Assembly: GCA_963734295.1 (NCBI GenBank)
Contig: CAVTGS010000021.1
Span: 4,892 to 68,891 of the forward strand
DNA length: 64,000 nt
Reading direction: 5' to 3'
DNA from: an uncultured beta proteobacterium
GTDB lineage: Bacteria > Pseudomonadota > Gammaproteobacteria > Burkholderiales > JAEUMW01
The position numbers and the translations under genes were made by a program. The stretch's first letter is position 1; every line of letters begins with the position of its first letter. The notes under the pieces are model-generated. The model was not told the DNA's origin and ran no database searches. It worked only from the letters and a program-made list of their open reading frames with translations. Positions 1 through 22,072 of the stretch are shown piece by piece.

Positions 1-86
1 GAATGAACACGCTGACCTTTGCCGAGTAGCGAATATTCTCGCCCTTGGTCAGGGTGGTTTCGATATACGACGCCATTTCTCCTCCT
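1..86 (-). CDS. Bacterial PH-domain (bPH/YdbT-like) small protein, 5' end only; the gene runs off the window
   Basis: ATG at 86 (minus strand) lies behind an AAGGAGGAG Shine-Dalgarno (complement of 89-97). The visible N-terminus MASYIETTLTKGENIRYSAKVSVFI has the M-x-Y-I-x-x-x-L-x-x-G-E opening typical of bacterial PH-domain proteins. Only about 28 codons are visible. Confidence 0.35.
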
Positions 87-329
87 TTTCACGCGAACGC
101 TTTCGCTCATTAGGCGGTAAGTGTATTCCTCACCGTCGCACCGCTCGTCTGGTTCGTAATCGTCGTTACTAGTTATTGCACTTAGAACTCTGCGGCCAAA
201 GCTGTCATCATAGGTTTCACACGACCCTCAACGGGTTCCTCACCGTCTTCGTCTGCTTCCCGTCGGACACTGACGTCACTAACGTGTAATCCCCCTTCGC
301 GATGTCTTTCAGAAGTGGTTCCGTTTGTT

Positions 330-367
330 TGAACAACTTTCCCCGATTTATAAGTGGACTCCGGGCA
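330..367. repeat. IS3-family left terminal inverted repeat (approximate)
   Basis: TGAACAACTTTCCCCGATTTATAAGTGGACTCCGGG aligns with the reverse complement of 1652-1681. The shared blocks are TTTGAACA and TATAAGTGGA-CTCCGGG. Confidence 0.55.
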
Positions 368-464
368 GATTGCTGAAGGTGCAGAGTTGTCCACGGCGGC
401 GTGCGTCGCTTGCGACGAACGCAAAGCCGCGGTGGGCAACTCGGGGCGCACCCGGGACTTCATC

Positions 465-1295
465 TTACGCAGCCAAGCGCATGGGCGGCAGCGCTGCCAG
501 ATACTGCTCGTCGGGCGTGATGCGCCCCAGGCTCGAATGACTGCGATGCGTGTTGTACCAGGACAGATACTCGGCAATGTCGGTGCGTGCCGCGCTCACG
601 CTGTCGTAGGCTTTCAGGTACACCCGTTCGTACTTCACGCTGCGCCACAGGCGCTCGACGAAGACGTTGTCGCGCCAAGCCCCGCGCCCGTCCATGGACA
701 GCTTGCAGCCTTGCTCCAGCACGACCCGGGTGAACTCTTCGGCCGTGAACTGGCTGCCCTGGTCGGTGTTGACGATCTCAGGGGTGCCGTATCGGGCCAA
801 GGCCTGTTCCATCACCTCTCTGGCGTGGCAGGCTTCCAGCGTGATCGCCACCTTGTGCGCCAGCACCTTGCGGCTGACCACATCGACCACGGCAGTGAGG
901 TACACGAAGCCCCGCGCCATCGGGATGTAGGTGGTGTCCAGCGCCCAGACCTGGTTGGCGCGGGTGATCGCCAGCTGGCGCAGCAGGTAGGGGTAGATGG
1001 TGTGGCCCGGTGTGGTTTTGCTGGTGCCCGGCTGGGGTGCCAGCGCTTCAATGCCCATGCGTAGCATCAGCGTTCTGATGTGGCGTCGTCCCGCATGGAT
1101 ACCTTGCCGGGCCAGGTGGTCACGCAGCATGCGTGCACCCATGAAGGGGTGCTCCAGGTGCAGTTCGTCGATCTTGCGCATGAGTGCCAGATCGGCCGGG
1201 CTGACCGGCAAAGGCAAGTAATACACCGTGCCCCGACTGATGTTCAGCAGCCTGGCTTGGCGCGTGATGGAAAGCTCGTGGTCTCGGTCAATCAT
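465..1295 (-). CDS. IS3-family transposase OrfB (rve/DDE integrase core)
   Basis: 276-aa ORF with the D-D-E landmarks [17 protein letters not shown] and [11 protein letters not shown]. It overlaps orfA by ATGA. Confidence 0.92.
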
Positions 1296-1609
1296 GGCTT
1301 TGCGCTCAGCAATCCCGCCTTGGTGAGCGCGCTTTCTAAAAAATCATTCTCCAGCGTCAACGCCCCGATCTTCGCGTGCAGCGGGGCGAGGTTCACCGGC
1401 TCGGGCGGGGCGCCAGAGCCAAAGATTTCGGCTGCGCGCTCGAGCAGCCGCCCCTTCCAGTCGGCGATCTGGTTCGGATGCACCTCGAACTGTTCGCACA
1501 GCTCCGCCATCGTGCGGTCCTCTCGCAAGGCGGCCAGGGCCACTCGGGCCTTGAACGCCGGATTGTGCGCGCGCCGCGTGCGCCGCGCCGATGCTTTCTT
1601 CTTGACCAT
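1292..1609 (-). CDS. IS3-family transposase OrfA (helix-turn-helix)
   Basis: [52 protein letters not shown] is a typical IS3 OrfA HTH. The ATG at 1609 has an AAGGAG RBS 7 nt upstream. The longer track start at 1666 lies inside the terminal repeat. Confidence 0.88.
1337..1343 (-). promoter_or_regulatory. Programmed -1 ribosomal frameshift slippery heptamer T-TTT-TTA producing an OrfAB fusion
   Basis: On the minus strand, orfA reads GAT TTT TTA GAA. This is an X-XXY-YYZ heptamer 13 codons before the orfA stop. The -1 frame is open from there into orfB (..[22 protein letters not shown]..). Confidence 0.6.
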
Positions 1610-1651
1610 CAGAAACTCCTTCTTGTCAGACCGCTTTCGGTCCGGCTTTAT

Positions 1652-1681
1652 ACCCGGAGTTTCCACTTATAGCGCTGTTCA
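1652..1681. repeat. IS3-family right terminal inverted repeat (approximate)
   Basis: The reverse complement reads TGAACAGCGCTATAAGTGGAAACTCCGGGT and matches the left end. It has the TG...CA termini typical of IS3-family elements. Confidence 0.55.
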
Positions 1682-1702
1682 AATTCGTGAGACCACTTCT
1701 AG

Positions 1703-3612
1703 GTGCTTCTGCTCGTAGGCAGCGTTGGCGCCGGCAAGTCGACATTTATTGATCACCTACAGGAAGTGGCATTGCCCGCCGATCTCATCAGTACCACTCT
1801 TTGGGTGCGTCTCAACATGAATGCGGCACCCGTATCAGCCAATGAGATCTATGGTTGGCTCAGAGAGGAGATCGCTAAGGGGTGTATTGCGGGCTATCCC
1901 GAGGTTGATTTCGACGACCTGTCGGTTCTTAAGGGGGTATTTTCGGTCGAGGTGAACCGCTTTAATAAGGGGGTCGGCAAGCTGTATCAAGCTGAGGAGA
2001 AGGTCTTTGCCGTAAAGCTCGCCGAACTGCTCGAAAAGCTGACTAGTGATCTTCATGCGAAAGCAATCGCTCTCACTAGGTATTGTGCGACAGAGCGCGG
2101 AAAGCTGTGGTCATGGTTCTGGATAATTGCGACAAGCGCTCACGCGACGAACAACTCTTAATGTTCCAAGCGGCTCAATGGGTTCAGAAGGAATTCCGCG
2201 CGCTCGTCATTCTCCCCCTTCCTGAAGAAACCTATGACAATCACAGAGATCAACCACCCCTTGACACCGCGCTTAAGGATTTCGTCTTTCGGATTGAGCC
2301 ACCTCTGTTTCAGCACGTTCTAGTTCGGCGAGTCCAGTTAGCGCTCAACGAGATAGGTACTGCCGACTCGAAGCACTTACGGTATGACCTGCCAAACGGT
2401 TTCCACGTTGAGTACGCAGCTTCCGACCAAGCGTTTTACCTTACCTGCATTCTCCGATCCATTTTTGACTACGACAAATACATTAGAAGAATGATCGTTG
2501 GTCTGTCAGGGAGAAACATTCGCCGAGCACTAGAAATCTTTCTTGATTTCTGCAAAAGTGGTCACATCGGAGAAGACCAAATATTTCGCATCAGGCAAGC
2601 GGAAGGGCAGTACACATTGCCCCTTCCCTTGGTGACACGCGTACTGCTCCGTATGAACAGGCGCTACTATGATAGTGACTACTCGTATCTTAAGAACTTG
2701 TTTGGCGTGGATCGACGCGATTCACGCGTCAACTACTTTTCGCGGCTAATGATTTTAAGGTGGCTTCTAGAGCGATTCTCGCAGGTTGGCCCATCTCACC
2801 TGAAAGGCTTCTTTTCCATCCAGCAACTCAAGTCCGATCTCAACCTTTACGGCGTCGAAGAGAAGGTGATCGCGAGGGAGCTTGAGTATCTAGTAAAGGC
2901 CCAATGTGTTCTGGTCGAGGACTTGCGGACGGACTCCCTGGACGACGAGACACTCATTCGACTTGCACCGGCTGGGTTCGTAAATCTTGAGGTACTCGGA
3001 AACGTTGACTACTTGGCCGCGGTGGCAGAAGACACCTGGATCAGTGATGAGCGCATTGCTCAAAGAATTGCCCAGCGAATCGCGCAACTCGACAAGCAGT
3101 ATCAGCCTCAGACTATGGTAGCCAATGCTCGCGAACTCCTCCAATTTCTACATCAGGCGAGAGAGCGGGACGCAAGCGGTCCACGCATTTTCTTGGAGAA
3201 AAGCGCACATGAAGGACTTACGGATCTTACCTTGGCGAACGAAGCCATTACGAAGCAGCACCAAGCAATGTTGAGCGGGCCGTGGCAGCGCGCGGAAACT
3301 CTCTTTCCAGCGGGTAGCGAGTTCGAGGGCGTCGTCGTCAACAACAAGGAGTTTGGCGTGTTTGTAGAGCTCGCCCCCGGTATCTCTGGGCTGATCCATA
3401 AGAGCAAACTTCCCGCTCGCCATGAATCTGATGATAGATTTATGGCGGGCGAGCCCATTTGGGTGCGTATTCTGTATGTCGACGCCGTCCAACAGCGAAT
3501 CGCAATGGCGTATGTTCCGAACCGCTCGTTTACCTCGCCGCCCGGCTCGACTGATTGGAGCTATCCCCAGCAATCAGCCGACCTTGGTCGAGAAGAACTG
3601 CCTAACGTATGA
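1703..3612 (+). pseudogene. P-loop NTPase (Walker A/B) with long helical middle region and C-terminal S1 RNA-binding domain; N-terminally truncated at the IS end and frameshifted near 2100
   Basis: Walker A LLLVGSVGAGKST lies 5 residues from the ORF start, and an in-frame TAG sits immediately upstream at 1700-1702. Walker-B-like AVVMVLDNCD is in the second frame (2083..3612). The frames join around ...ATERGK/AVVMVLD. The C-terminus EFEGVVVNNKEFGVFVELAPGISGLIHKSKL...GEPIWVRILYVDAVQQRIAMAY is an S1 OB-fold. The gene is clearly more AT-rich than the flanking core genes. Confidence 0.6.
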
Positions 3613-3869
3613 ATACGGTCTCCTTCCAGTGCCCACTTTCATCCTGCCTGGCGCGCCGAGGCGTTGAGCCACCGGCTGATTGCCCAACTCTCCGGATGTC
3701 CGGATAGGCCGACTTCCCATTGCTCAAGGCAGGACGACGCGGCAGCTGACCCTCAAGAAGCAGCCATTCGTTCGTCCGGAGCCCGAATGGCTCTCCTGGG
3801 TCGGGAGCAGCCTGTGGCGCTGGAGCTTGATTGCCGCGCCGCTACGCGGACTTCTTTGGGGCTGGCCTT

Positions 3870-4055
3870 TCAGCTTGCTTCTCTGCCACAGGTCCGCTCG
3901 CCGGTCGTTTGGCCGCGACCGTCTTCGTAGCTGCCTGCCAAGACCTCCTTTTCGGCAGCCAGCCAATACGGCAGCGCCAATCCGTGCGGGCGACCGGCAG
4001 ACTCCCACATCAGATACGCGAGATCCCGAATGCGCTGTTGAACGCCCTCGGCCAT
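3870..4055 (-). CDS. DUF2934-family small protein
   Basis: MAEGVQQRIRDLAYLMWESAGRPHGLALPYWLAAEKEV matches the DUF2934 signature (IRxxAYxxWExxGRPxGxxxxxWxxAE). I chose the start at the internal Met; the track ORF extends to 4157. Confidence 0.55.
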   Translation of the reverse strand: MAEGVQQRIRDLAYLMWESAGRPHGLALPYWLAAEKEVLAGSYEDGRGQTTGERTCGREAS

Positions 4056-4558
4056 CTCGCTGACCGTATTGCTCACGACATCATCCCCTCGATTTGAAAA
4101 ACCCGCTCCTCGAGCAATTGGCAGGGGATAGATTATTCCAGCGCGCCTTCTTTGCATTGGCGACGAAGTGGGTTTTGGTTACGGCTGGAGGCCGAGACTC
4201 GGAAAATCAAACTGCCCTTCTGATCGGCGCGAACTGTATCGCCGGACGAGTAAGTGGTCAATCCCATCAGTCGTGGCTGTTAGGGCTAGAACTTCGGAAC
4301 CCCGAGTCTCCAACTCGGATTGGGCCTGCACGATCGATAGCCGAGTGGCTGCTTTGGGAAGGCGAACGGCCGGAACGGGTCGGGTCCAGCCGTTTCAGGG
4401 CGGCGATAACTGGAACCGACGCAAATCGAGGCCGCCAGTGTGACTGAAGCAGATTCGATTCGGCATTGAACACTGGCACTCGTAGGCCTATGGCCTGCGT
4501 CGTCGAGAGGGATTGGCTCCAGCCCGTGCGCGAAAACCGCCCTCACTGCTGGCGCCGC

Positions 4559-7361
4559 TCACCCGCTATTCCGCAGTCCCGACGCGATCCCGTTGATGGT
4601 GAGCAGGATCGCGCGCTTCACCTTGTCGTCCTGGTCGCCGGAACGGAAGCGGCGCAGCAGCCCGAGCTGCAGATGATTCAACGGATCGATGTAGGGCTGG
4701 CGATTGCGGAAGCTGCGGGCGAGCGACGGGTTCGACTGCAGGAAGTGGCGCTGACCGGTGATGGCGCACATCTGCTCCACCGTGCGCTTCCATTCGTTGT
4801 AGATGTCGGTGAAGATGCGCTCGGAGAGCACGTCGTCCGCCACGAGATCGGCGTAGCGGGAGGCGATGCTCATCTCGCTTTTCGCGAGCACCATGTCCAT
4901 GTTCGAGAGCAGCGCCTGGAAGAACGGCCAGACGCGGTGCATCTCCTGCAGCGTGGCGAGTCCCGCCTGCCCCTCGCGCTTGACGTAGTCTTCGACGGCG
5001 GTGCCGAAGCCGTACCAGCCCGGCAGCATGATGCGCGCCTGCGACCAGCTGAACACCCACGGGATCGCACGCAGGTCCTCGATCCGGTCCGACCGCTTGC
5101 GCGACGCCGGCCGGCTGCCGATGTGCAGATCCGCGATCTCCGTGATCGGCGTGGCCTGACGGAAAAAGGTGACGAACCCCGGGGTTTCGTACACGAGCCG
5201 GCGATACGCGCGGTAAGCCGTCTCCGAGAGACCGTCCATGATCCGGTAGTGCGCCTCGAGATCCTGATCGGGATGGCCGTGCGGCACCAGCGTCGCCTCG
5301 AGCGTGCCGGCGACGAGCGTCTCCAGGTTGCGCCGGCCGATGTCCGGGTCCGCGTACTTGCTCGCGATCACCTCGCCTTGCTCGGTGATCCGGATCTGGC
5401 CGTCGACGCTGCCGGGCGGCTGCGCGCGGATGCCCTGATAGCTCGGTCCGCCGCCGCGGCCCACACTACCACCGCGGCCGTGAAATAGGCGCAGTCCCAC
5501 GCCGTGCCTGCGGAAGACCTCGACCAGTTCGACTTCGGCCTTGTGCAGCTCCCAGTTGGCGGTGAGATAACCGCCGTCCTTGTTGCTGTCGGAATAACCG
5601 AGCATCACCTCCTGGCAGTTGCCGCGCGTCGCGAGCAGGCGCCGGTACGCTGCGAGGCCGAGCACGCGGTCCATGATCGGCCCGCAGCCGCGCAGGTCGG
5701 CGATGGTCTCGAACAGCGGCACGATGTTGACGGCGAGCCGCGGCTCGGGCTGGACCTCGAGCAATCCCACTTCCTTCAGCAGAAGTGCGAGCTCGATGAG
5801 ATCGCTCACGCCGTCGGTCTTCGAGATCACGTAGTTGGGCAGCGCGGCGCTCCCGTAGCGCCGGTGGATCTCGGCCGCCACGTCGAAGATCGCGAGCTCC
5901 TTGCGGGTCGCCTCGCTGTAGTCGATGAAAGGCGAGCGCAGCGGCCGCGGCGTCTCGATCTCGCGCAGCAGCCACTCGAGCCGTTCGTCCTCGCTGCGCT
6001 GGGAATAGTTGCTCGCGTTCGCCCCACGCTCGAACAGCTCGGCGACCACCGCTTCGTGCACCCCCGAATGCTGGCGCATGTCGAGGGTGGCGAGGTGGAA
6101 CCCGAAGACCTGCACGGCGCGCCGCAGGCCGCGCAGCCTGCCGTCTGCGATCCGCGCCGAGCCGTGGCTGCGGAGCGACTGGTCGATGACATCGAGATCC
6201 CGGAGAAAATCCTGCGGCGTTGGATAGGGCGGCGCAGCAGCAACGGGCGGCAGCTCGGCGGTGAGCCCGACCAGGTCGCGCGCGGTTGCCGCCAGACGCG
6301 CATAGATGTTCGCGAGCGCGTTCCGGTAGGGCTCGTCCGGGCGATGATCGCGGTGCACGGCGGGGTCGAGCGCGAGCGCCTCCAGCTCGGGCGGGCGCGC
6401 CCACCAGCCGGCGCGACATGCTGAGCTCGGCCGCGAGGGCATGAATCTCCTTGAGGTAATGTTCGAAAGCGACCGTCGCGTGGCGCTGCATCGCGTGGCG
6501 TGTTACCTCGTGGGTTACGTAGGGGTTGCCGTCGCGATCGCCGCCGATCCAGCTCCCCATGCGCAAGAGCGGCGACACCCGCGGCGCGCGCTCCGGCCAC
6601 ACCGCTGCGAGCTGGTCCTCGATGTCCGCGTAGAGCTTGGGCAGCTCGCGCAGGAACGTGTACTCGTAATAGGCGAGCCCGTTCTCGATCTCGTCCGCAA
6701 CGGTGAGCCGAACCGACCGCAGGATGCGCGTCTGCCACAGCGCCAGCACGTCGCGCCGGATCTCTTCCTCGTTAGCCTTGAGCTCGGCAGGCGTGAGCTG
6801 CACGCGGTCGCGCTCGAGCAGGAGCCGCGTGAGCTCGCGCTGGCGGTTGAGCACGGCGCGTCGCTGCACCTCGGTGGGATGCGCGGTGAGCACCGGCGTC
6901 ACCACCCCTTGCGCGAACAGCCGCTCGACATCCTCCGCGCCGAAGCCCGCCTCCCGCACGCGCGCGAGCGCCAGGGCGAAGCTGCCTTCCTGGTGCTGCG
7001 GGTCTTCGCGTTGATGAAAGCGGCGCCGGCGGTTGTGGTGCAGATCCTCCGCGATGTTCGCGAGCTGCGAGAAGAACGTGAACGCCCGCGCGACCGCGAC
7101 GACTTCCTCGTAGGGCAGACCGCCCAGCATGCTTTCGAGCTCGCGCTTCGCGGCCGGGTCGCGATCGCGGCGAAAGCGCAGCGCCATCTGCCGCGTGCTT
7201 TCGATCAGGGCGAACGCCGCCTCGCCGTGCTGCTCGCGCAGGGTGTCGCCGAGCACGCGCCCGAGAAGCCGAATGTCATCGCGCAGCGGTGCGTCCTTGT
7301 CGGCCTCCACCTCCGGCGCGGGTGTTTCGCGCGAGGCGCCGTTTCCCATACGATCGTTCAT
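4559..7361 (-). pseudogene. ppc: Phosphoenolpyruvate carboxylase, one frameshift near 6395 as assembled
   Basis: The N-terminal frame (..VLTAHPTEVQRRAV..EIHALAAELSMSRRLV) and the C-terminal frame (PELEALALD...MLGYSDSNKDGGYL...FHGRGGSVGRGGGP...INGIASGLRNSG) are both unmistakably PEPC. They abut with a 1-nt offset. Confidence 0.93.
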
Positions 7362-7472
7362 GACAGAGATCCTCCGCGCGGTGGGGACCGACCGATTCTA
7401 CGGACCCGGTCGCCACCCCGTCCAGGGGGTGCATGCTAGAATCGCGGCCCAGGCAAGCGGCGCGCGGCGACG

Positions 7473-8466
7473 GTGAGATTCGCGGTGCCGACAATCGAGA
7501 GGAGCGGTTTGAACAGCAGTGCATCCGGAGTCCGGCGCGCGCCGGCGCGCATCGTCATCGCCACCCGGGAAAGCGCGCTGGCGCTGTGGCAGGCGCGCCA
7601 TGTCGAGACGCAGCTCGCGGCTTTATATCCCGAAAGCGAAATCCGGCTGCTCGGCATGACCACGGAGGGCGATCGCCGCCTGGGCGCATCGCTCGCCAAG
7701 ATCGGCGGCAAGGGGCTCTTCGTGAAGGAGCTGGAGGCGGCGCTCGAAGCGGGCGACGCGGACATCGCGGTGCACTCGATGAAGGACGTGCCCATGACGC
7801 TGCCACAGGGCTTTACCATCGCCGCCATCGGCCCGCGCGAGGATCCGCGTGACGCGCTCGTGTCGGCCCGCTGCACGAGCTTATCGGAGCTGGCTGCGGG
7901 CGCCGTCGTCGGTACGTCGAGCCTGCGGCGCGAGAGCCAGATCCGGGCACGCTATCCCGCGCTCGCCGTCGCGCCCTTGCGCGGCAACGTGCAGACGCGG
8001 CTGCGCAAGCTCGACGAAGGCCAGTTCGACGCGATCATCCTCGCGGCGGCTGGGCTTGAAGCGGCTCGGACTCGAGGCGCGCATCGCCGCCCTCATTCCG
8101 ACCGAGGAGAGCGTGCCCGCGGTCGGCCAGGGCGCGCTCGGCATCGAGTGCCGCGAGGACCGGGCGGACATGATCGCCGCGGTCGCGCCCCTTAACGACG
8201 ATCCGACAGCGCGCTGCGTGCGCGCCGAACGCGCCATGAGCCGCGCCTTGGCCGGCAGCTGCAACGTACCGCTCGGCGGCTACGCGCGTATCGAGAACGG
8301 ACGCATCCACATGGCCGGATTCGTCGCGAGCCCGGACGGTTCCCGCCATCTCACCGCGCGGGCCGACGGCGGGGTCGACGATCCGGAGCGGCTGGGCGAG
8401 GCGCTCGCACGCGAGCTGTATCGGCGCGGTGCGGCCGCGATCCTCGCCAGCCTCGCCGCGACGTGA
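7473..8466 (+). pseudogene. hemC: Hydroxymethylbilane synthase (porphobilinogen deaminase), one frameshift near 8057
   Basis: [18 protein letters not shown]...[11 protein letters not shown]...HSMKDVP...[25 protein letters not shown] continues in the next frame as KRLGLEARI...[12 protein letters not shown]. The extra base is in a TT run (GGGCTTGAAG). An alternative TTG start at 7509 lies behind GAGAGGAG. Confidence 0.92.
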
Positions 8467-9287
8467 TGGCGGAATCCGCACGTTCGCGCCCGGTGCCGCC
8501 AGGCGCGCTGGCCGGACGCACCATCGTGGTGACGCGGCCCGAACGGCAGGCGGGCGCGCTCGCCGATCTGATTCGCGAGGCGGGTGGAACCCCCGTCGTG
8601 TTTCCCGTGCTCGAGATCCGCGATGTCGACGATCCCGGTCCCTTGGCCGCCCTCGTCGGCCGTCTTGCGCAGTTCGACCTCGCCGTCTTCATCAGTCCGA
8701 ACGCGGTGCAGAAGGCCATGAGCTCGATCTCGGCGCGCGGTGGGTTTCCGCCTGGCCTGCTCGCGGCAACGGTCGGGAAAGGATCGGCCGCGGAGCTGCG
8801 GCGCCACGGTGTTGCCGGCGTCATCGCACCGTCGGAGCGCTTCGACAGCGAGGCGCTGCTCGAGCTGCCGCAGATGCAAGCAGTCGCCGCCAAGCGCATC
8901 GTCATCTTCCGCGGCCAAGGTGGGCGCGAGCTGCTCGGCGACACGCTCGCTGCGCGCGGCGCCACGGTCGAATACGCCGAGTGCTACCGCCGCGCGAAAC
9001 CCGACGCCGATCCGACGCCGCTCTTCGAGCTCTGGGCGCGCGACGCGCTGTCGGGAATCGCCATCACGAGCAGCGAAGGGGTCCGCAACCTGTTCGAGAT
9101 GGTCGGTCCGGCCGGGCGCGGGTGGCTCGCGCAGACGCTGCTCTTCGTGCCGCACGAGCGCATCGCCGAGACCGCCCGCACGCTCGGCTCGACCCGGCTG
9201 GTGCTCACCGGGCCGAACGACGAAGGCGTCGTCGCCGGCATGATCGACTGGTGGAGCGTTGGCCACGCCCCGCGAACGCCGGCCTGA
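8466..9287 (+). CDS. hemD: Uroporphyrinogen-III synthase
   Basis: About 273 aa. TGATG overlap with hemC. The sequence GRTIVVTRPERQAGALADLIREAGG..VFPVLEI and its position between hemC and hemX fit HemD. Confidence 0.85.
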   Translation: MAESARSRPVPPGALAGRTIVVTRPERQAGALADLIREAGGTPVVFPVLEIRDVDDPGPLAALVGRLAQFDLAVFISPNAVQKAMSSISARGGFPPGLLAATVGKGSAAELRRHGVAGVIAPSERFDSEALLELPQMQAVAAKRIVIFRGQGGRELLGDTLAARGATVEYAECYRRAKPDADPTPLFELWARDALSGIAITSSEGVRNLFEMVGPAGRGWLAQTLLFVPHERIAETARTLGSTRLVLTGPNDEGVVAGMIDWWSVGHAPRTPA

Positions 9288-9294
9288 TCCGCAG

Positions 9295-10422
9295 ATGGAC
9301 GATCACGCGCCGCCATCCTCCCCCGCGGTCGCCCCCGCGCCCGAGCCTGCCCCGCGCGAGGCGCCGATGAGACGACCGCTGTCGCCCAGCACGATCGCGC
9401 TCGTCCTCGCGGCGCTCGCGCTCGTGCTCCTTGCCTGGCAGTGGCTCGACGCCCGCAGCGAACGGCAGGCGATCCGCCAGGAGCTCGCGCGGCGGCTGGC
9501 CGAGATCGACGCTCAGAACAAGGAGGGGCGCGTCATCGCCCAACAGGCGCAGGAGGCGGCGCGCGACGTTCAGGTCAAGGTGGGCGTGCTCGAGGACAAG
9601 CTCGCCCAGTCACAGAATCAGCAGGTGGCGTTGGAGACGCTGTACCAGGAGCTCTCGCGCAACCGCGACGACTGGTCGCTCTCGGAGATCGAGCAGATCG
9701 TAGCGATCGCCTCGCAACAGTTGCAGCTCGCCGGCGACCTGCGCGCGGCGCTGCTCGCCCTCCAGACCGCGGACAGCCGCCTGCAGCGCCTCGACAAGCC
9801 ACAGCTCATCCCGCTGCGGAAGGTCATCGCCAAGGACATCGAACGGCTGAAGTCTCTGCCCCATGTCGACACCGTGGGGATCGCGGTGCGGCTCGACACT
9901 CTGCTCGGCCAGGTCGACGGCCTGCCGCTCGCCATGGAAGTGCGACCGATCACCGAACGCGAAGCCGCCGCGCCTACCCCCGCGGAGGAAAGCGCCTGGC
10001 AGCGGGTGATGCGGGAGGCGTTGACCGACTTCAAGCAGATGGTGCGTCTGCAGAAGCTCGACAAGACCGAGGTGCCGCTGCTCGCCCCCGAGCAGGCCTA
10101 CTTCGCGCGCGAGAACCTGAAGCTGCGCCTGCTCTCGGCGCGCATCGCGCTGCTACAACGGGACCCGGTGGCCTACCGCGCCGACATCCGGGCCGCCCGC
10201 GAGTGGCTCAACCGCTACTTCGACACCCAGAACAAGGCGGTGACGAGCGCACTCGCCACCCTGCGCGAGCTCGGCGAGAGCCCGGTGAGCATCGAAGTCC
10301 CCGACATCGTGGGCAGTCTCGAGGCGGTGCGCAACTACAAGATCGCGCGCGACGCCAAGGCGGACATGCCGGAGTCCGTCGCGCCCGCGAAACCTCCGCC
10401 CAAGGGGGCACGGGCGCGATGA
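9295..10422 (+). CDS. hemX: HemX-family membrane protein (uroporphyrinogen-III C-methyltransferase-like, coiled coil)
   Basis: It has an N-terminal TM helix (IALVLAALALVLLAWQW) and a long coiled-coil region. Its hemD-hemX-hemY position fits. The ATG at 9295 lies just after the hemD stop. Confidence 0.8.
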   Translation: MDDHAPPSSPAVAPAPEPAPREAPMRRPLSPSTIALVLAALALVLLAWQWLDARSERQAIRQELARRLAEIDAQNKEGRVIAQQAQEAARDVQVKVGVLEDKLAQSQNQQVALETLYQELSRNRDDWSLSEIEQIVAIASQQLQLAGDLRAALLALQTADSRLQRLDKPQLIPLRKVIAKDIERLKSLPHVDTVGIAVRLDTLLGQVDGLPLAMEVRPITEREAAAPTPAEESAWQRVMREALTDFKQMVRLQKLDKTEVPLLAPEQAYFARENLKLRLLSARIALLQRDPVAYRADIRAAREWLNRYFDTQNKAVTSALATLRELGESPVSIEVPDIVGSLEAVRNYKIARDAKADMPESVAPAKPPPKGARAR

Positions 10423-11627
10423 GAGCGCTCCTCTGGCTGCTGGCGCTGGCCGCGCTGGCGGTCGGCCTGACCGTGGCGTCCCGCTATTCGAGCGGCTACG
10501 TGCTGGTGGTGCTGCCGCCCTACCGGGCCGAGCTCTCGGTCAACCTGCTCGTCCTCATCGTGATCGCGGGCTATTTTCTCTTCTATCTGTTGACGCGGTT
10601 CATCGCAAACGCGATCCGGATGCCCGAGCAGGTGCGCAAGTTCCGCGAGTCGCGCCGGCGGGAGCGCGGTCGGCGGGCTCTGAACGATGCGATCGGCGCG
10701 CTCTTCGTGGGTCGCTTCGCGCGGGCCGAGAAGTCCGCGGTCGAGGCCTTCGAGCTCGGCGAGTCGCCGACGCTGGCGGCGGTGGTCGCAGCGCGCGCCG
10801 CACACGAGCTCAAGGCGTTCGAGAAGCGCGATCAGTATCTGGCGCAGGCCACCCGCGAAGACTCGCCCGACACCGATCTCGCGCACGTGGCGCGGGCGGA
10901 GTTGCTCGCCGAGCAGCAGCGCTTCGACGAAGCGCTCGCGTCGCTCGAGGGCGTGCAGCACCAGCACCCGGCGGTGATGCGGCTCGAGCTCAAGCTGCAG
11001 CAGCGGCTCGGCAACTGGGACCGGGTGCTCCAGCTCGCAGCGAGCCTCGGCAAGCGCGGCGTGTACGACGCGCTGCGCGTGCATCAGATCAGCCGCAATG
11101 CGCACATCGAGAACCTGCGCCGCCGCACCCTGGACGCCGCCGGCCTGAAGGAATACTGGCAGAAGATGCCGGGCGAGGAGCGCACCGACAACAAGATCGC
11201 CGCAGTCGCAGCGCAAGCCTTCATCGCGCTCGGCGGTTGCACGGAAGCGCACAGGATCATCGAGGAGAGCCTCGCGGTCGCGTGGGACAGCGGGCTCGTC
11301 GCGCTGTACGGCGAGTGTCTCGGACACGACGTGCGGCGGCAGATCGAGCTTGCCGAGAAATGGCTGCCCGATCACCCCGACGACGCCATCCTGCTGCTTA
11401 CGCTGGGCCGCCTCTGCGCGCGGCAGGAACTCTGGGGCAAGGCGGAGAGCTACCTGGAAGCGAGCCTGTCGGTCGAGCCGAGCTATTCCGCGCACCTGGC
11501 ACTGGCACATCTGAAGGAGCGGCGCGGCATGCTCCAGGCAGCCGCGGAGCACTATCGGAAGGGGCTCGAGCTCGCGCTCTCTCAGGTGAGTTCGAACACG
11601 GGCGGGCGGCGCCGCACCGTGGTGTAA
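10419..11627 (+). CDS. hemY: HemY-family protein (two N-terminal TM helices plus TPR repeats)
   Basis: MRALLWLLALAALAVGL...YRAELSVNLLVLIVIAGYFLFYLL is followed by TPR-like repeats. ATGA overlap with hemX. Only the last 402 codons of track ORF 9441..11627 are real. Confidence 0.85.
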   Translation: MRALLWLLALAALAVGLTVASRYSSGYVLVVLPPYRAELSVNLLVLIVIAGYFLFYLLTRFIANAIRMPEQVRKFRESRRRERGRRALNDAIGALFVGRFARAEKSAVEAFELGESPTLAAVVAARAAHELKAFEKRDQYLAQATREDSPDTDLAHVARAELLAEQQRFDEALASLEGVQHQHPAVMRLELKLQQRLGNWDRVLQLAASLGKRGVYDALRVHQISRNAHIENLRRRTLDAAGLKEYWQKMPGEERTDNKIAAVAAQAFIALGGCTEAHRIIEESLAVAWDSGLVALYGECLGHDVRRQIELAEKWLPDHPDDAILLLTLGRLCARQELWGKAESYLEASLSVEPSYSAHLALAHLKERRGMLQAAAEHYRKGLELALSQVSSNTGGRRRTVV

Positions 11628-11631
11628 GTTC

Positions 11632-12670
11632 TTACACTGCGGTCTTCTTGCGGGCGTCGGTCGCCGTAGTGAAGGCGTCGGAGAAAAAAGCGTCCTCGGG
11701 CAGACGGCAGTGCGTCGTGAAATCGCGGTGCGCCGCTTCCACCATGACCGGCGCGCCGCAGGCGTAGACCTGGTAACCGGAGAGATCGGGGTGATCTTCC
11801 ATGACCGCGCGATGCACGAAGCCCGATACGGCCGCTCCACTCGTCCTCGGGCCGTGCCTCCGACAGCACGGGCACGTAGCGAAAGTTCGGGTGCGTCTCC
11901 ACCCACCCACTGGCCAGCCCATCGAGGTACAGATCGGGACGCGTGCGTGCGCCCCAGTACAGCACCATGGGACGCTCGATGCCGCGGTGAAAGGCGTGCT
12001 CGACCATACCCTTGATCGGCGCGAAGCCGGTGCCGCTCGCGAGGAAGATGATCGGCTTGTCGCTGTCTTCGCGCAGGAAGAAGGTGCCGAAGGGTCCCTC
12101 GAAGCGCAGGATCTCGCGCTCCTTCATGCGGGTGAAGACGTGTTCGGTGAAGGTGCCGCCGGGGTAGTGGCGCAGGTGCAGCTGCAGCAACTCGTCGTCG
12201 TGGGGCGCATTCGCCATCGAGAAGGCGCGCCGCTTGCCGTCCTTGGTCAGGATCTCGATGTACTGCCCGGCCAGGAACTGCAGACGCTCGTTGGCGGGCA
12301 GCCGCAGATGGAGCGCCATGACGTCGGGGGCAAGCCGTTCCATCTTCTGCACTCGACATGGCAGGGTCTTGATCGGGATGTCCCGCACGGCGCTGATCTC
12401 GCGCGATTCGATCACCAGATCCGAGAGCGGGCGCGCCTGGCAGAAGAGGGCGAAGCCCGCTTCGCGGTCGGCGTCGGGCAGCGCCGTGGGCTGGTAGCGG
12501 CCGTAGTCGACCGTGCCTGCCACGATCATCCCCTTGCACGTGCCGCACGCGCCGTCACGGCAGCCGTAAGGCAGCGGGTAGCCCTGGCGCAGCGCCGCCG
12601 CGAGAACGGTTTCGTCGGCCTCCACGTCGAACACGTGGTCGCTCGGTTTGATGGTGACGCGGCGGGTCAT
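11632..12670 (-). pseudogene. 2Fe-2S ferredoxin / FAD / NAD(P) oxidoreductase (CDP-6-deoxy-delta-3,4-glucoseen reductase-like), one frameshift near 11830
   Basis: Motifs present: CRDGACGTCK (plant-type 2Fe-2S), RAFSMAN (FAD), ASGTGFAP (NAD). The C-terminus VYACGAPVMVEAA..F continues in ORF 11632..11922. Confidence 0.85.
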
Positions 12671-12738
12671 GGTGGTCCTTTCGAGTCCGCCCGGGGCGGG
12701 TGGGCCGGCGGCCGGCCGAATTCCTTCACGTTGCGACG

Positions 12739-13618
12739 ATGCGAAGATTGTTGATCGTAGGCTGCGGCGACGTGGCGCTCCGCGCCGCGCCGCTGCTCGC
12801 CCGGCGCTATCGCCTGTATGGCCTGTCGCATCGGCCGGAGCACCGTGCCGCCCTGCGCGAGCGCGGCATCACGCCCATCGCCGGCGATCTCGACGACCGC
12901 CGCCGGCTGCGGCGCCTTGCCGGTGTGGCGCACGATGTCCTGCACCTCGCACCGCCGCCCCCGCGCGGGCGCAAAGACGAACGCACCGCGCGACTCCTGG
13001 CGGCTCTTTGCGGCCGCGGAAGTCTACCACGGCGATTCCTGTACATCAGTACCTCCGGGGTCTATGGCGACTGCCGCGGCGCGCTGGTCCCGGAGACCCG
13101 TCGGGTCGCCCCCGGCACCGATCGCGCACGCCGTCGGGTCGATGCGGAGCGCAGGCTGCGCGCGTTCCAGCGCCGCACCGGGGTCCCGGTCTCGGTCCTG
13201 CGCGTGCCCGGCATCTATGCGGCGGATCGACTGCCCGCTGCCGCGCCTGCGGGCCGGTACCGCCGCGCTCGTGCGCGACGAAGACGCGTTCTCGAACCAC
13301 GTTCACGCCGATGATCTCGCACGCATCTGTGCCGCGGCCTTGCGGAAAGGGCGGCCGGGGCGCGTCTATCACGCGGTGGACGAGAGCGAGCTGCGCATGG
13401 GCGACTATTTCGATGCCGTGGCCGATGCGTTCCACCTTCCACGGCCGCCGCGCGTGACCTGGGAGGTGGCGCAGGCAACCCTTTCGCCGGAGCTGCTCTC
13501 CTTCATGGGTGAATCCCGCCGGCTTTCCGGCGCTCGGCTGCACCAGGAACTCGGCGTGCGGCTGCGCTATCCCACGGTTGCGAGCGCGCTCGCAGAGCTG
13601 ACCGGGGAAACCCGTTAG
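12739..13618 (+). pseudogene. NAD-dependent epimerase/dehydratase (SDR) family protein, one frameshift near 13230
   Basis: MRRLLIVGCGDVA (Rossmann) ...YISTSGVYGD... continues in the second frame as ...FSNHVHADDLARI...VYHAVDESELRMGDYF. Confidence 0.75.
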
Positions 13619-13636
13619 AATCGAGCGTGATCGTCG

Positions 13637-13993
13637 ATGACCGCCGTGGACATCCTTCTCATCTTCACCAATCTACCCGACCGCGCGAGCGCGCTTGGCC
13701 TGGCGCGGGATCTGGTCGAGGCGCGTTGTGCCGCCTGCGTGAACGTGCTCGGCGGTTGCACATCGGTCTACCGCTGGCAGGGCGAGATCGAGACGGCGGA
13801 AGAGGTCCCGGTGCTCATCAAGACCCGGTCGGCCCTTTACGGTGCGGTGGAGCAGGCGATTCGGGCGCGGCATCCGTACGACGTTCCCGAGATCATCGCG
13901 GTGCCCGTGTCGCAGGGGCTGCCGTCTTATCTCGAATGGGTGGAGACGGCGACCCTGCCTCCTGCCTCGGACCGCATAGCTGGCGCGGATTAG
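13637..13993 (+). CDS. cutA: Divalent-cation tolerance protein CutA
   Basis: 118 aa. LLIFTNLPDRASALGLARDLVEARCAACVNVLGGCTSVYRWQGEIETAEEVPVLIKT...HPYDVPEIIAVPV is a canonical CutA1 sequence. Confidence 0.92.
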   Translation: MTAVDILLIFTNLPDRASALGLARDLVEARCAACVNVLGGCTSVYRWQGEIETAEEVPVLIKTRSALYGAVEQAIRARHPYDVPEIIAVPVSQGLPSYLEWVETATLPPASDRIAGAD

Positions 13994-13994
13994 C

Positions 13995-15812
13995 GTGATC
14001 GGCATCCGGCTTCTCGTCCTTCTGTGGTTCGCGACCTTTGTCGTCGCGGCCAACGCGGCGGGCGGCGCGGGTGACGCCCTCAAAGCTTTCGGTAGTGGCC
14101 AATCGGAACCTGACTTCCTTCCGCCCGAAAAGGCGTTTCGGGGTCGAGGCGACGATGCGCGACGCGAGTTCCGCCGTCGTGCGTTTCGCGCCGGCTCCGG
14201 GCTATTACCTGTACAAGGAAAAGCTCGCGTTCCGTGCGGACGGCTCGGGCGGGGCAGCGGTCGCCGGCGTCGCCCTCCCCGCCGCGGAGGTGAAGCAGGA
14301 TCCTACCTTCGGCTCTACCTACGTCTACCACGAGCCCTTCGAAGCCGTGATCGAGTTGAGCGGCGGCGGCGGCGGCCCGCACCACTCTTGCGGTCGATTA
14401 TCAGGGCTGCGCCGAGCAGGGGCTCTGCTATGCACCCATGACGAAGACCTTCGCGCTGGATTTTGCGGGTCGTTCGGCGACGCCGCTGCCGGCGGCGGTG
14501 CACGGACGGCACCGTCGCCGAGGACAGCCGCATCGCCGTGACCCTGCGCGACGGCAGCCTGTGGGCATCGGTCGCAGCCTTCTTCGGGTTCGGGCTGCTG
14601 CTGGCGCTGACGCCCTGCGTGTTTCCCATGATCCCGATCCTGTCCGGCATCATTGCCGGGCAGGCGCATGCGGGGCTCTCGCATACCCGCGGTTTCATAC
14701 TCGCGCTGGCGTATGTGCTCGGCATGGCGCTGACCTACGCCGCGGCCGGGGTCGCGGCCGGGCTCTCCGGTACCATGCTGTCGGCCGTCCTCCAGAGTCC
14801 CTGGGTGCTGGTCACCTTCGCGGCGATCTTCGTGCTGCTCGCCTGCTCCATGTTCGGCCTCTACGACCTGCAGCTGCCGACCGTGCTCCAGAGCAAGCTC
14901 GCCGCAGAGGCCAACCGGCTGCATGGCGGCCACTTCGCGGGGGTGTTCGGCATGGGGTCGGTGTCGGCCCTGATCGTCGGCCCCTGCGTGGCCCCGCCCC
15001 TGGCGGGTGCGCTGCTCTACATCTCGCAGACGCGCGAGGCGTTGCAAGGCGGCGCCGCGCTCTTTGCCATGGGCCTCGGCATGGGTGTGCCACTGCTCCT
15101 CATCGGGGCCACGGGCGGCGCGGTATTGCCGCGGTCGGGGCCCTGGATGGAAGCAGTCAAGCAGGTGTTCGGGGTGGTAATGCTCGGCGTCGCGATCTGG
15201 CTCGTCTCGCCGCTACTGCCCGCGGTGGTGGTCATGCTCGCCTGGGCAGCGCTTTTCATCTGCTCGGCGATTTTCCTGCACGCCATCGACCCGCTGCCGC
15301 ACGGGGCCTCCGGCTTTCGCAAGCTCTGGAAGGGCATGGGCGTGATTGCCCTCATGGTCGGCGTGGCCTTGCTCGTGGGCGCCCTGTCCGGCGGTCGGGA
15401 CGTGCTGCAGCCGCTCGCCGGACTGCGCGCCGCGGGAGGCGGCCCGGAGCAGGCGCTCCAGTTCCAGCGGGTACGCAACGTGGGAGAACTGGAAGCGCGT
15501 CTCGCGCAGTCGCGTGGCACGCCCGTGATGCTCGACTTCTACGCCGACTGGTGCGTCGCCTGCAAGGAAATGGAGCGCTTCACGTTCACGGACGACCGCA
15601 TCCGCGCCCGGCTCGACAAGTTCGTCCTGCTGCAGGCGGACGTGACCGACAACACCGCGGAGGACCGTGCGCTCATGCAGCGCTTCAGCCTGTTCGGCCC
15701 TCCCGGGTACATCTTCTTCTCGGCGGCGGGGAACGAGATCTCGGGGCTACGCGTGACCGGCTTCAAGCCCGCCGACATCTTCCTGGACATCCTGAAGCAG
15801 GTCAGCGGCTGA
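13995..15812 (+). pseudogene. dsbD: Thiol:disulfide interchange protein DsbD, at least 3 frameshifts (about 14135, 14385, 14500)
   Basis: Successive frames give FLPPEKAFR / APAPGYYLYKEKLAF..QDPTFGSTYVYHEPFE / LAVDYQGCAEQGLCYAPMTKTF / LTPCVFPMIPILSG...FYADWCVACKE (C-terminal thioredoxin fold). Confidence 0.9.
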
Positions 15813-16348
15813 TGAGCAAGCTGCGGTGGGCCGCGCTCGCCGCGGCGGTGGCGATCGTCGCCGCCGTCGCCGGGGTTGCCGTCCGCAGCCTCTTGCTCGA
15901 CGACGTGAAGCCCCCCGCAGCCGCAGCCGCGTCCGGCGACATGCTCGAGGCAGCCTTCGCCGACCTCGCGGGAACGCCGCAGCGCCTCGACCAATGGCGC
16001 GGGAAGGTGCTGGTCGTGAATTTCTGGGCGACCTGGTGCCCGCCCTGCCTCAAGGAGATTCCCGAGTTCATCCGGATGCAGAACCGGTATCGCGAGCAGG
16101 GGCTCCAGTTCGTCGGCATAGCCATCGACCAGCCGGACAGAGTGGCGGCGTTCGCCGACGAGATGCGTTTCAACTACCCCGTGCTGATAGGCGCCCTCGA
16201 AGCGGTGGAGCTCCTGCGCGCGCTCGGCAATCAGCACGGCGGCCTGCCGTTCACGGTGGTGTTCGACAGGAGCGGTGCCATCGTCGCAACGGAGCTGGGA
16301 GCGTTCGACGAGCCGAAGTTATCGCGGCTTATCGAACCACTTCTGTGA
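15812..16348 (+). CDS. TlpA/ResA-like periplasmic thioredoxin (thiol:disulfide oxidoreductase)
   Basis: [19 protein letters not shown] anchor followed by [23 protein letters not shown]-type overlap with the dsbD stop. Confidence 0.85.
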
Positions 16349-16446
16349 CGTTCGCGGCATATTGTGAGATTTTCGGCGCGCCGCGTGCTTCCGGCAGGCG
16401 CAGCGCGGACTGGACGAACTGTGCCGAACTGCGTCAAACTGCGAGG

Positions 16447-16908
16447 ATGTCAGCCGCCGCCCCGCAGCATATTCTCGTCCTGCACGGCCCCAATCTGAAT
16501 CTTCTGGGGACGCGCGAGCCGGAACATTACGGGCGCGTCACACTGGCGGAAATCGACGAGCGGCTCGACCGCCGTGCAGCAGCAGCGGGGGTGCGGCTCG
16601 CAGCGTATCAGAGCAATTCCGAAGGCGAGCTGGTCGACCGGGTGCACGCAGGATCACGTTCCGGAGTCGACTTCGCGATCGTCAATCCGGCTGCGCTCAC
16701 GCACACGAGTGTTGCGCTGCGTGACGCCCTGGCGTCGGTGGCTCTTCCCTTCGTCGAGGTTCACCTGTCCAATGTCTTTGCCCGCGAGGCCTTCCGCCAT
16801 CACTCCTATTTCAGCGATATCGCGGTCGGCGTGATCTGCGGGCTCGGCGCTCGCGGCTACGAGCTCGCCCTCGAGTTCGCGCTCGATTATCCCCTCAGGA
16901 GGCTGAGC
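16447..16908 (+). CDS. aroQ: 3-dehydroquinate dehydratase type II; no in-frame stop before accB as assembled
   Basis: [21 protein letters not shown]...[14 protein letters not shown]...[18 protein letters not shown]...[21 protein letters not shown]. The frame runs straight into the accB ATG at 16909. A TGA sits in the +1 frame at 16904-16906. Confidence 0.88.
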
Positions 16909-17353: not shown

Positions 17354-17440
17354 CGTTCCGGTGGCCCCGGTACGCCGCTCGCCGCGCCGTGGGTAGAACG
17401 GCCGGCCGATCCTGATACTGCGCCGCCTGCTGACGCTCCC

Positions 17441-18800: not shown

Positions 18801-18813
18801 CGCAGGAAGATCC

Positions 18814-22024: not shown

Positions 22025-22072
22025 CCCTGCGACAGGAGCCGCTCGAGACCCGCGCAGCCGCTGCGCGCAGCG

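Follow-up and report, generated by a model that had tools for sequence, protein, structure and literature searches.

A gene split by an IS3-family element is probably a disrupted copy of a single-protein, RNA-sensing defence nuclease

Closest described systems and the phrog_14719 family

The Avs STAND NTPases and bacterial NACHT proteins have an N-terminal PD-(D/E)xK-type nuclease effector, followed in the centre by a P-loop switch that is related to ORC/Cdc6 and carries a winged helix, and end in a sensor at the C-terminus; they are encoded by solitary genes in variable, defence-rich neighbourhoods. The family described here, a member of which was found split in the window (the whole 64,000-nt stretch of DNA that was analysed), resembles them in each of these respects, and CED-4 matches the model of one family member, P0002, at Z 11. 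However, the sensor of the family is small (S1, CSD or RRM), whereas theirs are TPR, LRR or WD40 arrays; no such repeats were seen at the C-terminus of family members, which consists of S1, CSD, RRM or nothing. Its ATPase is nearer to ORC/Cdc6 (Z 13–14) than to STAND structures and retains a sensor-2-like lid arginine, R557. Pfam STAND models match few members and weakly (at E ≤ 0.01, nSTAND_NTPase5 in 5 of 56 representatives, NACHT in 1 of 56 and NB-ARC in one protein), and no PADLOC Avs or NLR model gives a match.

The best structural matches are the replication initiators Orc1/Cdc6 and the TnsC of Tn7/CAST, AAA+ proteins of the initiator clade, which align over the AAA+ base, lid and winged helix (residues ~199–615, or up to 715). 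The AF2 model of P0002 (pLDDT 86.6) matches ORC4, Cdc6 and archaeal Orc1/2 over residues 199–615 at Z 13–14 (Foldseek, VIA), and with the winged helix its alignments to 1w5s_B and 2v1u_A extend to residues 709–715; at 10–16% sequence identity, this likeness is one of fold only. Unlike these proteins, the family adds a nuclease at the front and an RNA-binding domain at the rear, its Walker B motif reads D-N-x-D rather than D-E, without the usual glutamate, and it has no link to origins or transposition genes. HsdR of type I restriction systems shares the N-terminal HSDR_N PD-(D/E)xK domain, with D...E-x-K kept, and is the source of the database names of family members at NCBI (‘type I restriction endonuclease’ and ‘type I restriction enzyme HsdR N-terminal domain-containing protein’). 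However, the family has neither an SF2 translocase (Pfam found no ResIII or Helicase_C in the ORFs of the window, the Desulfocapsa homologue or the 56 representatives) nor a conserved HsdM/HsdS partner, and so does not represent the R subunit of a type I enzyme.

A further comparison is offered by the CoCoNuTs, type IV restriction-like systems that join an NTPase and nucleases with cold-shock-type OB folds, a combination from which their authors predict RNA targeting (PMC11090510). The present family likewise joins NTPase and nuclease with cold-shock-type OB folds. By contrast, CoCoNuTs are encoded by several genes, derive from McrBC and contain a GTPase and coiled coils, whereas each family member consists of one polypeptide chain whose AAA+ module is ORC-like, and no homology between the two was detected past the common domain types.

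The first-pass annotation had described the gene as an orphan, which proved wrong: by its sequence, it is a member of the phrog_14719 family (HsdR_N–AAA+–(S1)), which comprises 210 clusters at E < 1e-30 and whose full-length members typically have 880–900 aa. Their architecture runs from an HsdR_N-type PD-(D/E)xK nuclease through an ORC/Cdc6-like AAA+ module with a winged helix to a C-terminal S1 domain. HSDR_N is present in all 56 representatives (Pfam), and AAA_22 or AAA_16 matches in about half of the members. Invariant in the family are D66, E80 and K82 of the nuclease (PD...ExK), Walker A, Walker B, R492 and R557, the last of these inside the lid motif G-R-N-I-R-x-A; we infer the roles of R456, R492 and R557. 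At the C-terminus the module is exchangeable: S1 may give way to CSD (two stretches in the member L120:4711-7584), to 2xRRM (P0019, E 2.7e-27, Pfam) or to no domain at all (20 of 56 representatives), and RNA sensing is therefore not universal in the family. The phrog_14719 profile itself (833 positions) ends before S1 and carries no functional annotation, and ‘predicted RNA-binding protein with RPS1 domain’ is the name that some members bear at JGI.

No named family had been recognized for the gene in the initial reading, and PADLOC-DB v2.0.0 (5027 models) gives the same picture: the 509-aa part has no match to any family at E ≤ 1, and the first ORF has P-loop-level matches only (E 0.006–0.03). 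Neither a paper on the nuclease–AAA+–S1 architecture nor an experiment on any member was found in the literature; an HsdR_N protein mentioned for Zymomonas is an HsdM fusion, unrelated to the family. The family is uncharacterized and unstudied, and it moves horizontally.

A gene in two halves

Window positions 1701–3612 are the 3′ two-thirds of a gene whose 5′ third lies on a different contig of this genome, C18, the two having been split by an IS3-family insertion sequence. In the window, the last 636 codons, beginning with codon 280 and including the stop, occupy 1703–3612 on the plus strand, as given by the ORF list and a colinear phrog_14719 match, and are assembled in two frames, 1703–2107 and 2108–3612. 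The 5′ third, 279 codons with the nuclease, is found at C18:118255–119092 on the minus strand, where it abuts a sister copy of the window’s insertion sequence; the cut thus falls at codon 279/280 of ~915. The Desulfocapsa homologue (894 aa) matches this genome in three end-to-end pieces, residues 7–276 on C18 and residues 270–411 and 402–849 on C21, the window’s contig. The phrog_14719 profile does so colinearly as well, with positions 10–277 matching the C18 half (E 2.8e-25) and positions 296–437 and 435–788 the C21 part (E 1.2e-25 and 4.9e-104). Across the restored junction the frame runs uninterrupted (..EHK|VLLLVGSVGAGKST), and the read-through, with X at the frame break described below, is a single open frame of 915 aa. 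The uninterrupted arrangement was also found in a 151-nt soil-metagenome contig (X1 record 2, a single record of depth 2), which passes from the end of the C18 half to window 1701 with a single AGG and without the IS. Metagenome contigs cover parts of the stretch only, 2221–2223 and most of the split gene lying outside them, and any one sequencing run holds at most 12% of the stretch’s sampled words.

The insertion sequence (1390 bp, 311–1700, minus strand; blastn against the C18 copy and Pfam) contains orfA (1666–1292, minus strand, HTH_Tnp_1) and, overlapping it, orfB (1295–465, minus strand, rve (DDE)). It has terminal inverted repeats, the inverted ends of which start AGAAGTGGT, and a target-site duplication, AGG, at 1701–1703 (plus strand), the twin of which ends the N-terminal gene half on C18. 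With orfA/orfB, inverted repeats and a short target duplication all found, the element is a member of the IS3 family. It is 99.5% identical to the C18 copy over 1390 bp (blastn), and perfect 3-bp target duplications occur at four of the seven full-length copies in the genome. The 3-bp duplication is common to the gene-side flanks of the two copies (cct|IS|... in the window, ...|IS|cct on C18). On the sides facing away from the gene, the two flanks have no common 3-bp repeat (aga vs gaa), and their reciprocal join gave no open frame across and no second disrupted gene. The location of the halves on separate contigs could be due to a cointegrate or composite transposon, to an inversion or to an assembly mis-join.

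The first-pass annotation had held that the IS removed the N-terminus. The truncation is real, but the loss amounts to 279 codons including HSDR_N rather than a few residues, and the lost part has been located on C18; the PD-(D/E)xK effector had been missed because the nuclease is on another contig. That the reading frame opens at the IS3 end was seen correctly: the junction falls within a TAG at 1700–1702, and the next codon, from 1703, is GTG, the end of the element being 1700, not 1681.

Within the 3′ part, the assembled sequence has a −1 frame break at 2107/2108 (a 1-nt deletion, plus strand). A metagenome contig (X4 record 13, also a single 151-nt record of depth 2) covers 2069–2218 and is identical bar one extra T behind 2107, which yields ...ERGKLLVMVLDNCDKR, the family consensus. 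Compared with two relatives, neighbouring core genes, ppc included, have at least 15 frame switches in ~18 kb (~1 per kb). The extra T and these frequent switches make it probable that the break at 2107/2108 arose in assembly. The earlier judgement that the gene is inactive for want of its N-terminus and through a frameshift is thus sound as to the former, the IS truncation being real as assembled, but the frameshift is probably an artefact; as this gene shows, frameshifts in the assembly are not to be trusted at face value. The split gene as assembled is dead, and the surroundings of ppc have been rearranged by the genome’s IS copies. A further departure from the family is CCT (Pro) at 2221–2223 (plus strand), at the end of the sensor-1 strand, where the family alignment has Arg in 71 of 71 aligned full-length relatives (R456 in P0002 numbering). 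This may be a true substitution or a sequence error; with Pro at an otherwise invariant Arg, the copy may therefore have been defective before the IS arrived.

The domains of the 3′ part follow one another in the family order. Walker A (GSVGAGKST, 1718–1744, plus strand) lies, as first noted, five residues into the frame and aligns with the invariant G289, G292, G294, K295 and T297. The Walker B strand and motif (VVMVLDNCD, 2107–2133, plus strand) come directly after the frame break, which had been placed near 2100, and align with the invariant D423, N424 and D426. About 450 residues beyond this point had been left unassigned. The stretch is nearer to 390 residues and can be accounted for by the rest of the ORC/Cdc6-like AAA+ module, with its sensor-2-like lid (G-R-N-I-R-x-A) and winged helix, and by a helical domain (together 2308–3300, plus strand; from alignment to the P0002 model, with approximate borders). 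The C-terminal S1 OB-fold recognized at the outset is borne out by profile search: Pfam S1 (PF00575) matches 3307–3510 on the plus strand (ORF2 aa 409–476) with E 2.6e-11 and 44.2 bits, against a gathering cut-off of 22, and the same region of a homologue model aligns with RpsA over 83 residues (Z 12.2, r.m.s.d. 2.4 Å). In NCBIfam, rpsA models cover the residues that Pfam assigns to S1, and no profile gave anything past P-loop and S1 matches. On the C18 fragment, outside the window, HSDR_N is found with E 7.9e-10 (Pfam). The read-through keeps 30 of 31 family-invariant residues, the exception being the Pro at R456. The intact protein, of ~915 aa, would therefore comprise the nuclease, a helical linker, the ORC/Cdc6-like AAA+ module with lid and winged helix, the helical domain and S1.

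Genomic setting and distribution

The gene lies in an accessory region with a GC content of 0.52–0.55 (0.52 for 1701–3612), compared with 0.66 for 4559–64000, in keeping with the initial impression of a much less GC-rich patch. The rest of the patch, 3613–4558, extends to the stop codon of ppc, where same-genus synteny breaks exactly (synteny with relatives starts at ~4543–4558), and holds two repeats that recur in a DNA search of the same genome, one of ~36 nt (3620–3655) and one of ~60 nt (3741–3803). With the query used, no family member was found in 60 relatives, five of the same genus, in which matches were confined to rpsA-type S1 domains; the 60 include the unpublished G031, and the result is independent of it. 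Low GC, the lack of matches in the relatives and the synteny break together support horizontal acquisition, as had been suggested from base composition alone. No tRNAs (window 1–8000) and no Rfam families (window 1–5000) were found, and no integration site is therefore named.

Elsewhere, the family is widespread, its hundreds of sequence clusters extending over many phyla (Pseudomonadota, Acidobacteriota, Verrucomicrobiota, Bacteroidota, Bacillota, Planctomycetota, Cyanobacteria, Parcubacteria and others), with copies on plasmids, on islands and, in a few cases, on viral contigs. Across the 80 genomic loci fetched, no conserved neighbour gene, large or small, was found; most of these loci are chromosomal, with varied neighbours. 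Immediate neighbours, tallied by family with duplicates retained and without a matched control, are rich in integrases and in known defence genes, among them HsdR/HsdM, SIR2, pAgo, MADS mad2/mad3, PbeA and type IV REases, with N6_Mtase in 2 of 143 only. The homologues lack the fixed synteny expected of housekeeping genes, and these neighbourhoods agree with the early suggestion that the gene acts alone, is defence-like in its architecture and lies in a mobile context. The Desulfocapsa copy (L002:6792-9476) is on a 36.7-kb plasmid, between a replication initiator gene and parA, and other plasmid copies adjoin IS66 and a methylase gene. A further intact homologue, from a Pseudomonas sp. (L029:10001-12691), has 93% identity to P0002. 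In IMG/VR there are at least three loci, with two near-full-length copies on viral contigs; tblastn against phage records gave rpsA-like S1 matches only.

Proposed function and rival explanations

For the intact protein we propose that the C-terminal domain would bind single-stranded RNA of an invader, that binding would switch the AAA+ module through ATP-dependent assembly or conformational change, and that nucleic acid would then be cut by the N-terminal nuclease, licensed by the switched module. A single protein would in this way act as both immune sensor and effector, and its gene would be carried by a small island, acquired horizontally, beside ppc. Taking the reconstruction of the locus and this mechanism jointly, we think it rather probable that the split gene is a disrupted copy of a single-protein, RNA-sensing defence nuclease. 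For the family at large, architecture and neighbourhood make a one-protein anti-phage weapon the most likely role.

The same parts could be read otherwise. In an ATP-dependent, restriction-type DNA endonuclease, type IV-like or solitary, foreign DNA would be recognized by the ORC-like AAA+ module and winged helix, and the S1, CSD or RRM tail would be a tether, not a trigger. The HSDR_N nuclease is indeed the sole universally conserved effector, the best-matching solved AAA+ structures with a winged helix (ORC/Cdc6 and TnsC-like) bind double-stranded DNA, 20 of 56 members do without any C-terminal domain, and the NCBI label points the same way. We nevertheless consider this reading unlikely: the family has no SF2 motor and no conserved HsdM/HsdS or other methylase partner, and three unrelated RNA-binding folds have been recruited independently at the same C-terminal position, which argues for a selected role of single-stranded nucleic acid. 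RNA-binding folds are also typical of RNA-metabolism proteins, and S1 might guide the nuclease to cellular RNA in a housekeeping or stress-related RNA-processing or quality-control enzyme, as the JGI name could suggest. Such a role is very improbable for a gene that was not found in any of the 60 relatives searched, that is patchy across phyla and without a fixed neighbourhood, that lies here in low-GC DNA at a break in synteny, and that is dispensable in its own genome, since it has been split by the IS.

The targets might also be rival replicons rather than phages; the protein would then serve mobile elements that compete with one another, or take part in maintaining or excluding plasmids. 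The position of the Desulfocapsa copy between replication initiator gene and parA, the further plasmid copies, the existence of a PHROG family and the two viral-contig copies are consistent with this. However, the mostly chromosomal loci with their varied neighbours, and neighbour clustering without a conserved rep/par link, make it quite improbable, and its mechanism overlaps with defence in any case.

The preferred reading, an RNA-sensing defence nuclease, admits a bolder form, held here only tentatively and with rather low confidence: the family might be an undescribed class of immune sensor in which an interchangeable S1, CSD or RRM domain senses invader RNA, an ORC/Cdc6-like AAA+ module assembles in an ATP-dependent manner and the PD-(D/E)xK nuclease is thereby turned on. 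If true, this would be an RNA-triggered counterpart to the protein-triggered Avs/NLR sensors. For the field, the family is one of solitary genes that adjoin known defence genes and are missing from PADLOC v2, and the three unrelated RNA-binding folds behind one nuclease–ATPase core lead to a cheaply testable hypothesis, namely that a single protein senses invader RNA and carries its own nuclease.

As a side observation, the phrog_14719 profile also gives matches, as yet uninspected, in five control genomes.

The two halves of one gene

An IS3-family element of 1,390 bp occupies positions 311–1700 of the window on the minus strand, with orfA at 1666–1292 (HTH_Tnp_1 in Pfam) and orfB at 1295–465 (rve), both on that strand; its ends were set by nucleotide comparison with another copy from this genome, which is 99.5% identical across 1,390 bp. 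That this element abuts a reading frame had been noted correctly in the first-pass annotation, whereas its end, implied there to be at 1681, lies at 1700 when the two copies are compared. The open frame begins directly behind the element: a TAG (1700–1702) spans the junction and is followed by a GTG at 1703. Walker A (GSVGAGKST, 1718–1744) lies in this first frame; a second frame (2083–3612) contains VVMVLDNCD and ends in an S1 domain (3307–3510, amino acids 409–476; Pfam E = 2.6e-11, 44.2 bits against a gathering score of 22), the same residues being matched by NCBIfam rpsA models. GC content is 0.52 in 1701–3612 versus 0.66 in the remainder of the window. The P-loop, VVMVLDNCD, the S1 domain, the IS contact and the lower GC content, all initially read from the sequence alone, are thus real, and profile search upholds the S1 assignment. 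By contrast, the label ‘orphan’ does not hold. The PHROG profile phrog_14719 (833 positions, function unknown) matches both frames colinearly (302–437 and 436–788; E = 8.7e-26 and 1.1e-103), and the family is large. As this match starts near position 300, about 300 residues are missing upstream of Walker A, not five.

An 894-amino-acid Desulfocapsa protein (Pfam: HSDR_N 43–120, P-loop at ~278, S1 814–878) matches the window’s own genome in three end-to-end pieces: residues 7–276 on another contig, C18 (118256–119062, minus strand), and residues 270–411 and 402–849 on the window’s contig, C21. Searching the genome with phrog_14719 returned the same three pieces and nothing else, and it therefore holds one single split copy of the family gene. 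On C18 the frame comprises 279 codons, matches HSDR_N (Pfam, E = 7.9e-10) and adjoins the opposite end of the sister IS copy; the nuclease effector domain is separated from the window half by the IS. Once the IS and one of the two 3-bp target duplications are taken out, the frame is continuous, ..EHK-VLLLVGSVGAGKST. Independent evidence comes from a 151-nt soil-metagenome contig (record 2 of set X1), in which the 71 bases that precede the junction run straight into window 1701–1780, with one AGG and no IS; the 30-nt consensus reported for this contig matches the end of the C18 fragment exactly. Hence both halves formerly made up one gene, and alleles lacking the IS occur in nature.

The ‘one frameshift’ of the first-pass annotation is present in the assembly, but is probably not a true inactivating lesion. 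An environmental contig (record 13 of set X4) spanning 2069–2218 is identical save for one extra T behind 2107, which restores the frame ERGKLLVMVLDNCDKR, the family consensus. The assembly itself is error-prone: compared with the same-genus genome G004, ppc (PEP carboxylase; 4559–7361, minus strand) carries a 1-nt insertion at ~6393 in a C-rich run, giving two overlapping frames, and translated ORFs of two same-genus genomes reveal at least 15 frame switches over ~18 kb of syntenic core genes (4559–22500). With core genes showing roughly one indel per kb, one or two would be expected in a gene of 2.7 kb. The frameshift is therefore probably not biological; the assembly looks like unpolished long-read data, and frameshift or pseudogene calls in this genome require read support. 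Read through with an X at the break, the gene gives a single open frame of 915 amino acids, 51.5% identical to its nearest full-length relative, P0002 (the numbering reference used here), and retains 30 of 31 family-invariant positions. The exception is a proline (codon 2221–2223, end of the sensor-1 strand) in place of Arg 456, which is arginine in all 71 aligned full-length members, and reflects either decay of the window copy or a base error.

A widespread and unnamed family

At E ≤ 0.001, an exhaustive profile-free search returned 5,430 proteins, many of them matched through S1 only; 210 cluster representatives reached E < 1e-30. Full-length forms typically have 880–900 or ~800–830 residues, plasmid-borne homologues ~895. 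Frames are intact in nearly all of the 80 genomic loci fetched, which come from Pseudomonadota, Acidobacteriota, Verrucomicrobiota, Bacteroidota, Bacillota, Planctomycetota, Cyanobacteria/Melainabacteria, Spirochaetota, Lentisphaerota and one Parcubacteria MAG. Among 60 relatives (five of the same genus), this query found no family member, only rpsA-type S1 matches; one of the 60 genomes, G031, is unpublished, and the result holds without it. Databases name these proteins ‘type I restriction enzyme HsdR N-terminal domain-containing protein’, ‘type I restriction endonuclease’ or ‘predicted RNA-binding protein with RPS1 domain’. No PADLOC v2 model matches the split gene beyond its P-loop, in agreement with the first-pass annotation, which recognized no named family in it, and no description of the architecture was found in the literature searched.

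Conservation across 71 aligned sequences extends over the nuclease residues K56, D66, E80 and K82 (P-D...E-A-K motif), Walker A, D423, N424, D426, Q433, R456, T459, R492 and R557, the last within a lid motif (G-R-N-I-R-x-A) resembling sensor 2 of AAA+ proteins. In an AlphaFold2 model of P0002 (pLDDT 86.6, pTM 0.82), residues 199–615, or up to 709–715 with the winged helix, match ORC4, Cdc6 and archaeal Orc1/2 (Z 13–14); TnsC (Z 11.5) and CED-4 (Z 11) are also matched, and residues 807–890 resemble RpsA S1 domains (Z 12.2). Pfam finds HSDR_N in all 56 representatives, AAA_22 in 31, AAA_16 in 29, KAP_NTPase in 8 and S1 (E ≤ 0.01) in 16. S1 is the C-terminal module in the window copy and many other members; its place is taken by two cold-shock stretches (E = 1.8e-11) in a 957-residue plasmid protein (L120:4711–7584), in line with an Atlas sister cluster that has a CSD in 74% of its members, and by two RRMs (E = 2.7e-27) in P0019 (990 residues). 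The C-terminal domain is absent in 20 of the 56 representatives.

No neighbor is shared by more than three of the 80 loci (proteins of at least 70 residues, four on each side; small ORFs within 700 nt), and the family gene would work alone. The commonest Pfam families among 143 immediate neighbors are Phage_integrase (5), HSDR_N (4) and ResIII (3), followed by SWI2_SNF2, N6_Mtase, Eco57I, SIR2_2 and AAA_21 (2 each). PADLOC models matched in neighbors at E ≤ 1e-10 comprise mad2, mad3, type IV and type I restriction and modification proteins, PbeA, pAgo, SIR2, DolB, Ppl and two PDC candidates. Enrichment of defense and mobile genes seems clear but unquantified, these being raw family tallies that may include duplicates and have no matched control. 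Family copies also occur on plasmids. On the 36.7-kb plasmid of Desulfocapsa sulfexigens, an intact homologue (L002:6792–9476) lies between the replication initiator gene (rep) and parA, and a radical SAM/peptidase/glutathione synthase cluster is found further along.

Proposed working

The order of parts would be effector, NTP switch and sensor, an order shared with Avs and bacterial NLR-type immune proteins. From its fold, the switch may undergo ATP-dependent assembly or DNA engagement, as in initiator-clade AAA+ proteins. Three unrelated RNA-binding folds were recruited at the same C-terminal position, which argues that the ligand of this module would be single-stranded RNA or, less likely, single-stranded DNA. 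We therefore favor a putative RNA-triggered nuclease. The chief alternative would be a solitary ATP-dependent DNA endonuclease with the tail as an accessory, for which the tail-less fifth to third of the family speaks. A type I HsdR is ruled out, as the SF2 motor and M/S partner that characterize HsdR are absent. For the favored RNA-triggered nuclease, the nearest published concept is the CoCoNuT systems, for which RNA targeting was predicted from cold-shock-type OB folds on an NTPase–nuclease system (PMC11090510); the likeness is one of logic, not homology.

The family is a candidate, unnamed variant within the known single-chain effector–NTPase–sensor defense proteins, and the window locus is a broken member. 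The first-pass reading is thereby supported in part, and its underlying observation confirmed in part. The locus itself is a pseudogene, in an assembly prone to errors, yet it leads to a sizeable, testable, unnamed candidate defense family.

Rearrangement of the accessory island

The IS3-family element is present in seven full-length copies in the genome, and at four of these the 3-bp target duplication is perfect (atg, gag, ggg, gat). Those without matching duplications (L014, C21:5202–6591; L015, C18:116865–118254; L020, C15:80962–82349) suggest several IS-mediated rearrangements. The window copy is flanked as cct–IS–gaa and the C18 copy as aga–IS–cct; the two gene-side flanks therefore have the target duplication (cct) in common, in line with a single insertion event, whereas the inner flanks (aga versus gaa) share none, and no open frame bridging them was found. 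The placement of the halves on different contigs may go back to an inversion, to a mis-join during assembly, or to two direct IS copies forming a cointegrate or a structure like a composite transposon.

Synteny with same-genus genomes starts exactly at the ppc stop codon (~4543–4558). Part of the post-ppc sequence of G004 maps to C18:127313–128150, beyond the N-terminal fragment as seen from the IS, which fits an accessory island of ~12 kb, formerly continuous between this flank and ppc. Another stretch of this G004 flank is found on contig C14, close to two further IS copies; the region has therefore undergone more than one round of reshuffling. Other island genes in this genome are an IS21 IstB gene, a DUF2846 gene and hypothetical genes.

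A repeat of ~60 nt (window 3741–3803; C18:121634–121696 and 124095–124140; C12:945673–945734) is matched by many soil-metagenome contigs with flanks differing in each, and its two C18 copies bracket the IstB gene; the repeat is possibly a MITE or the end of an IS21-type element. Just 3' of the split gene’s stop codon lies a 36-nt element (3620–3655) with three more copies in the genome (one on C17, two on C12; 86–92% identity). A 95-residue ORF in the accessory patch (3870–4157, minus strand) contains a stretch, RIRDLAYLMWESAGRPHG, that by eye resembles small DUF2934-type proteins.
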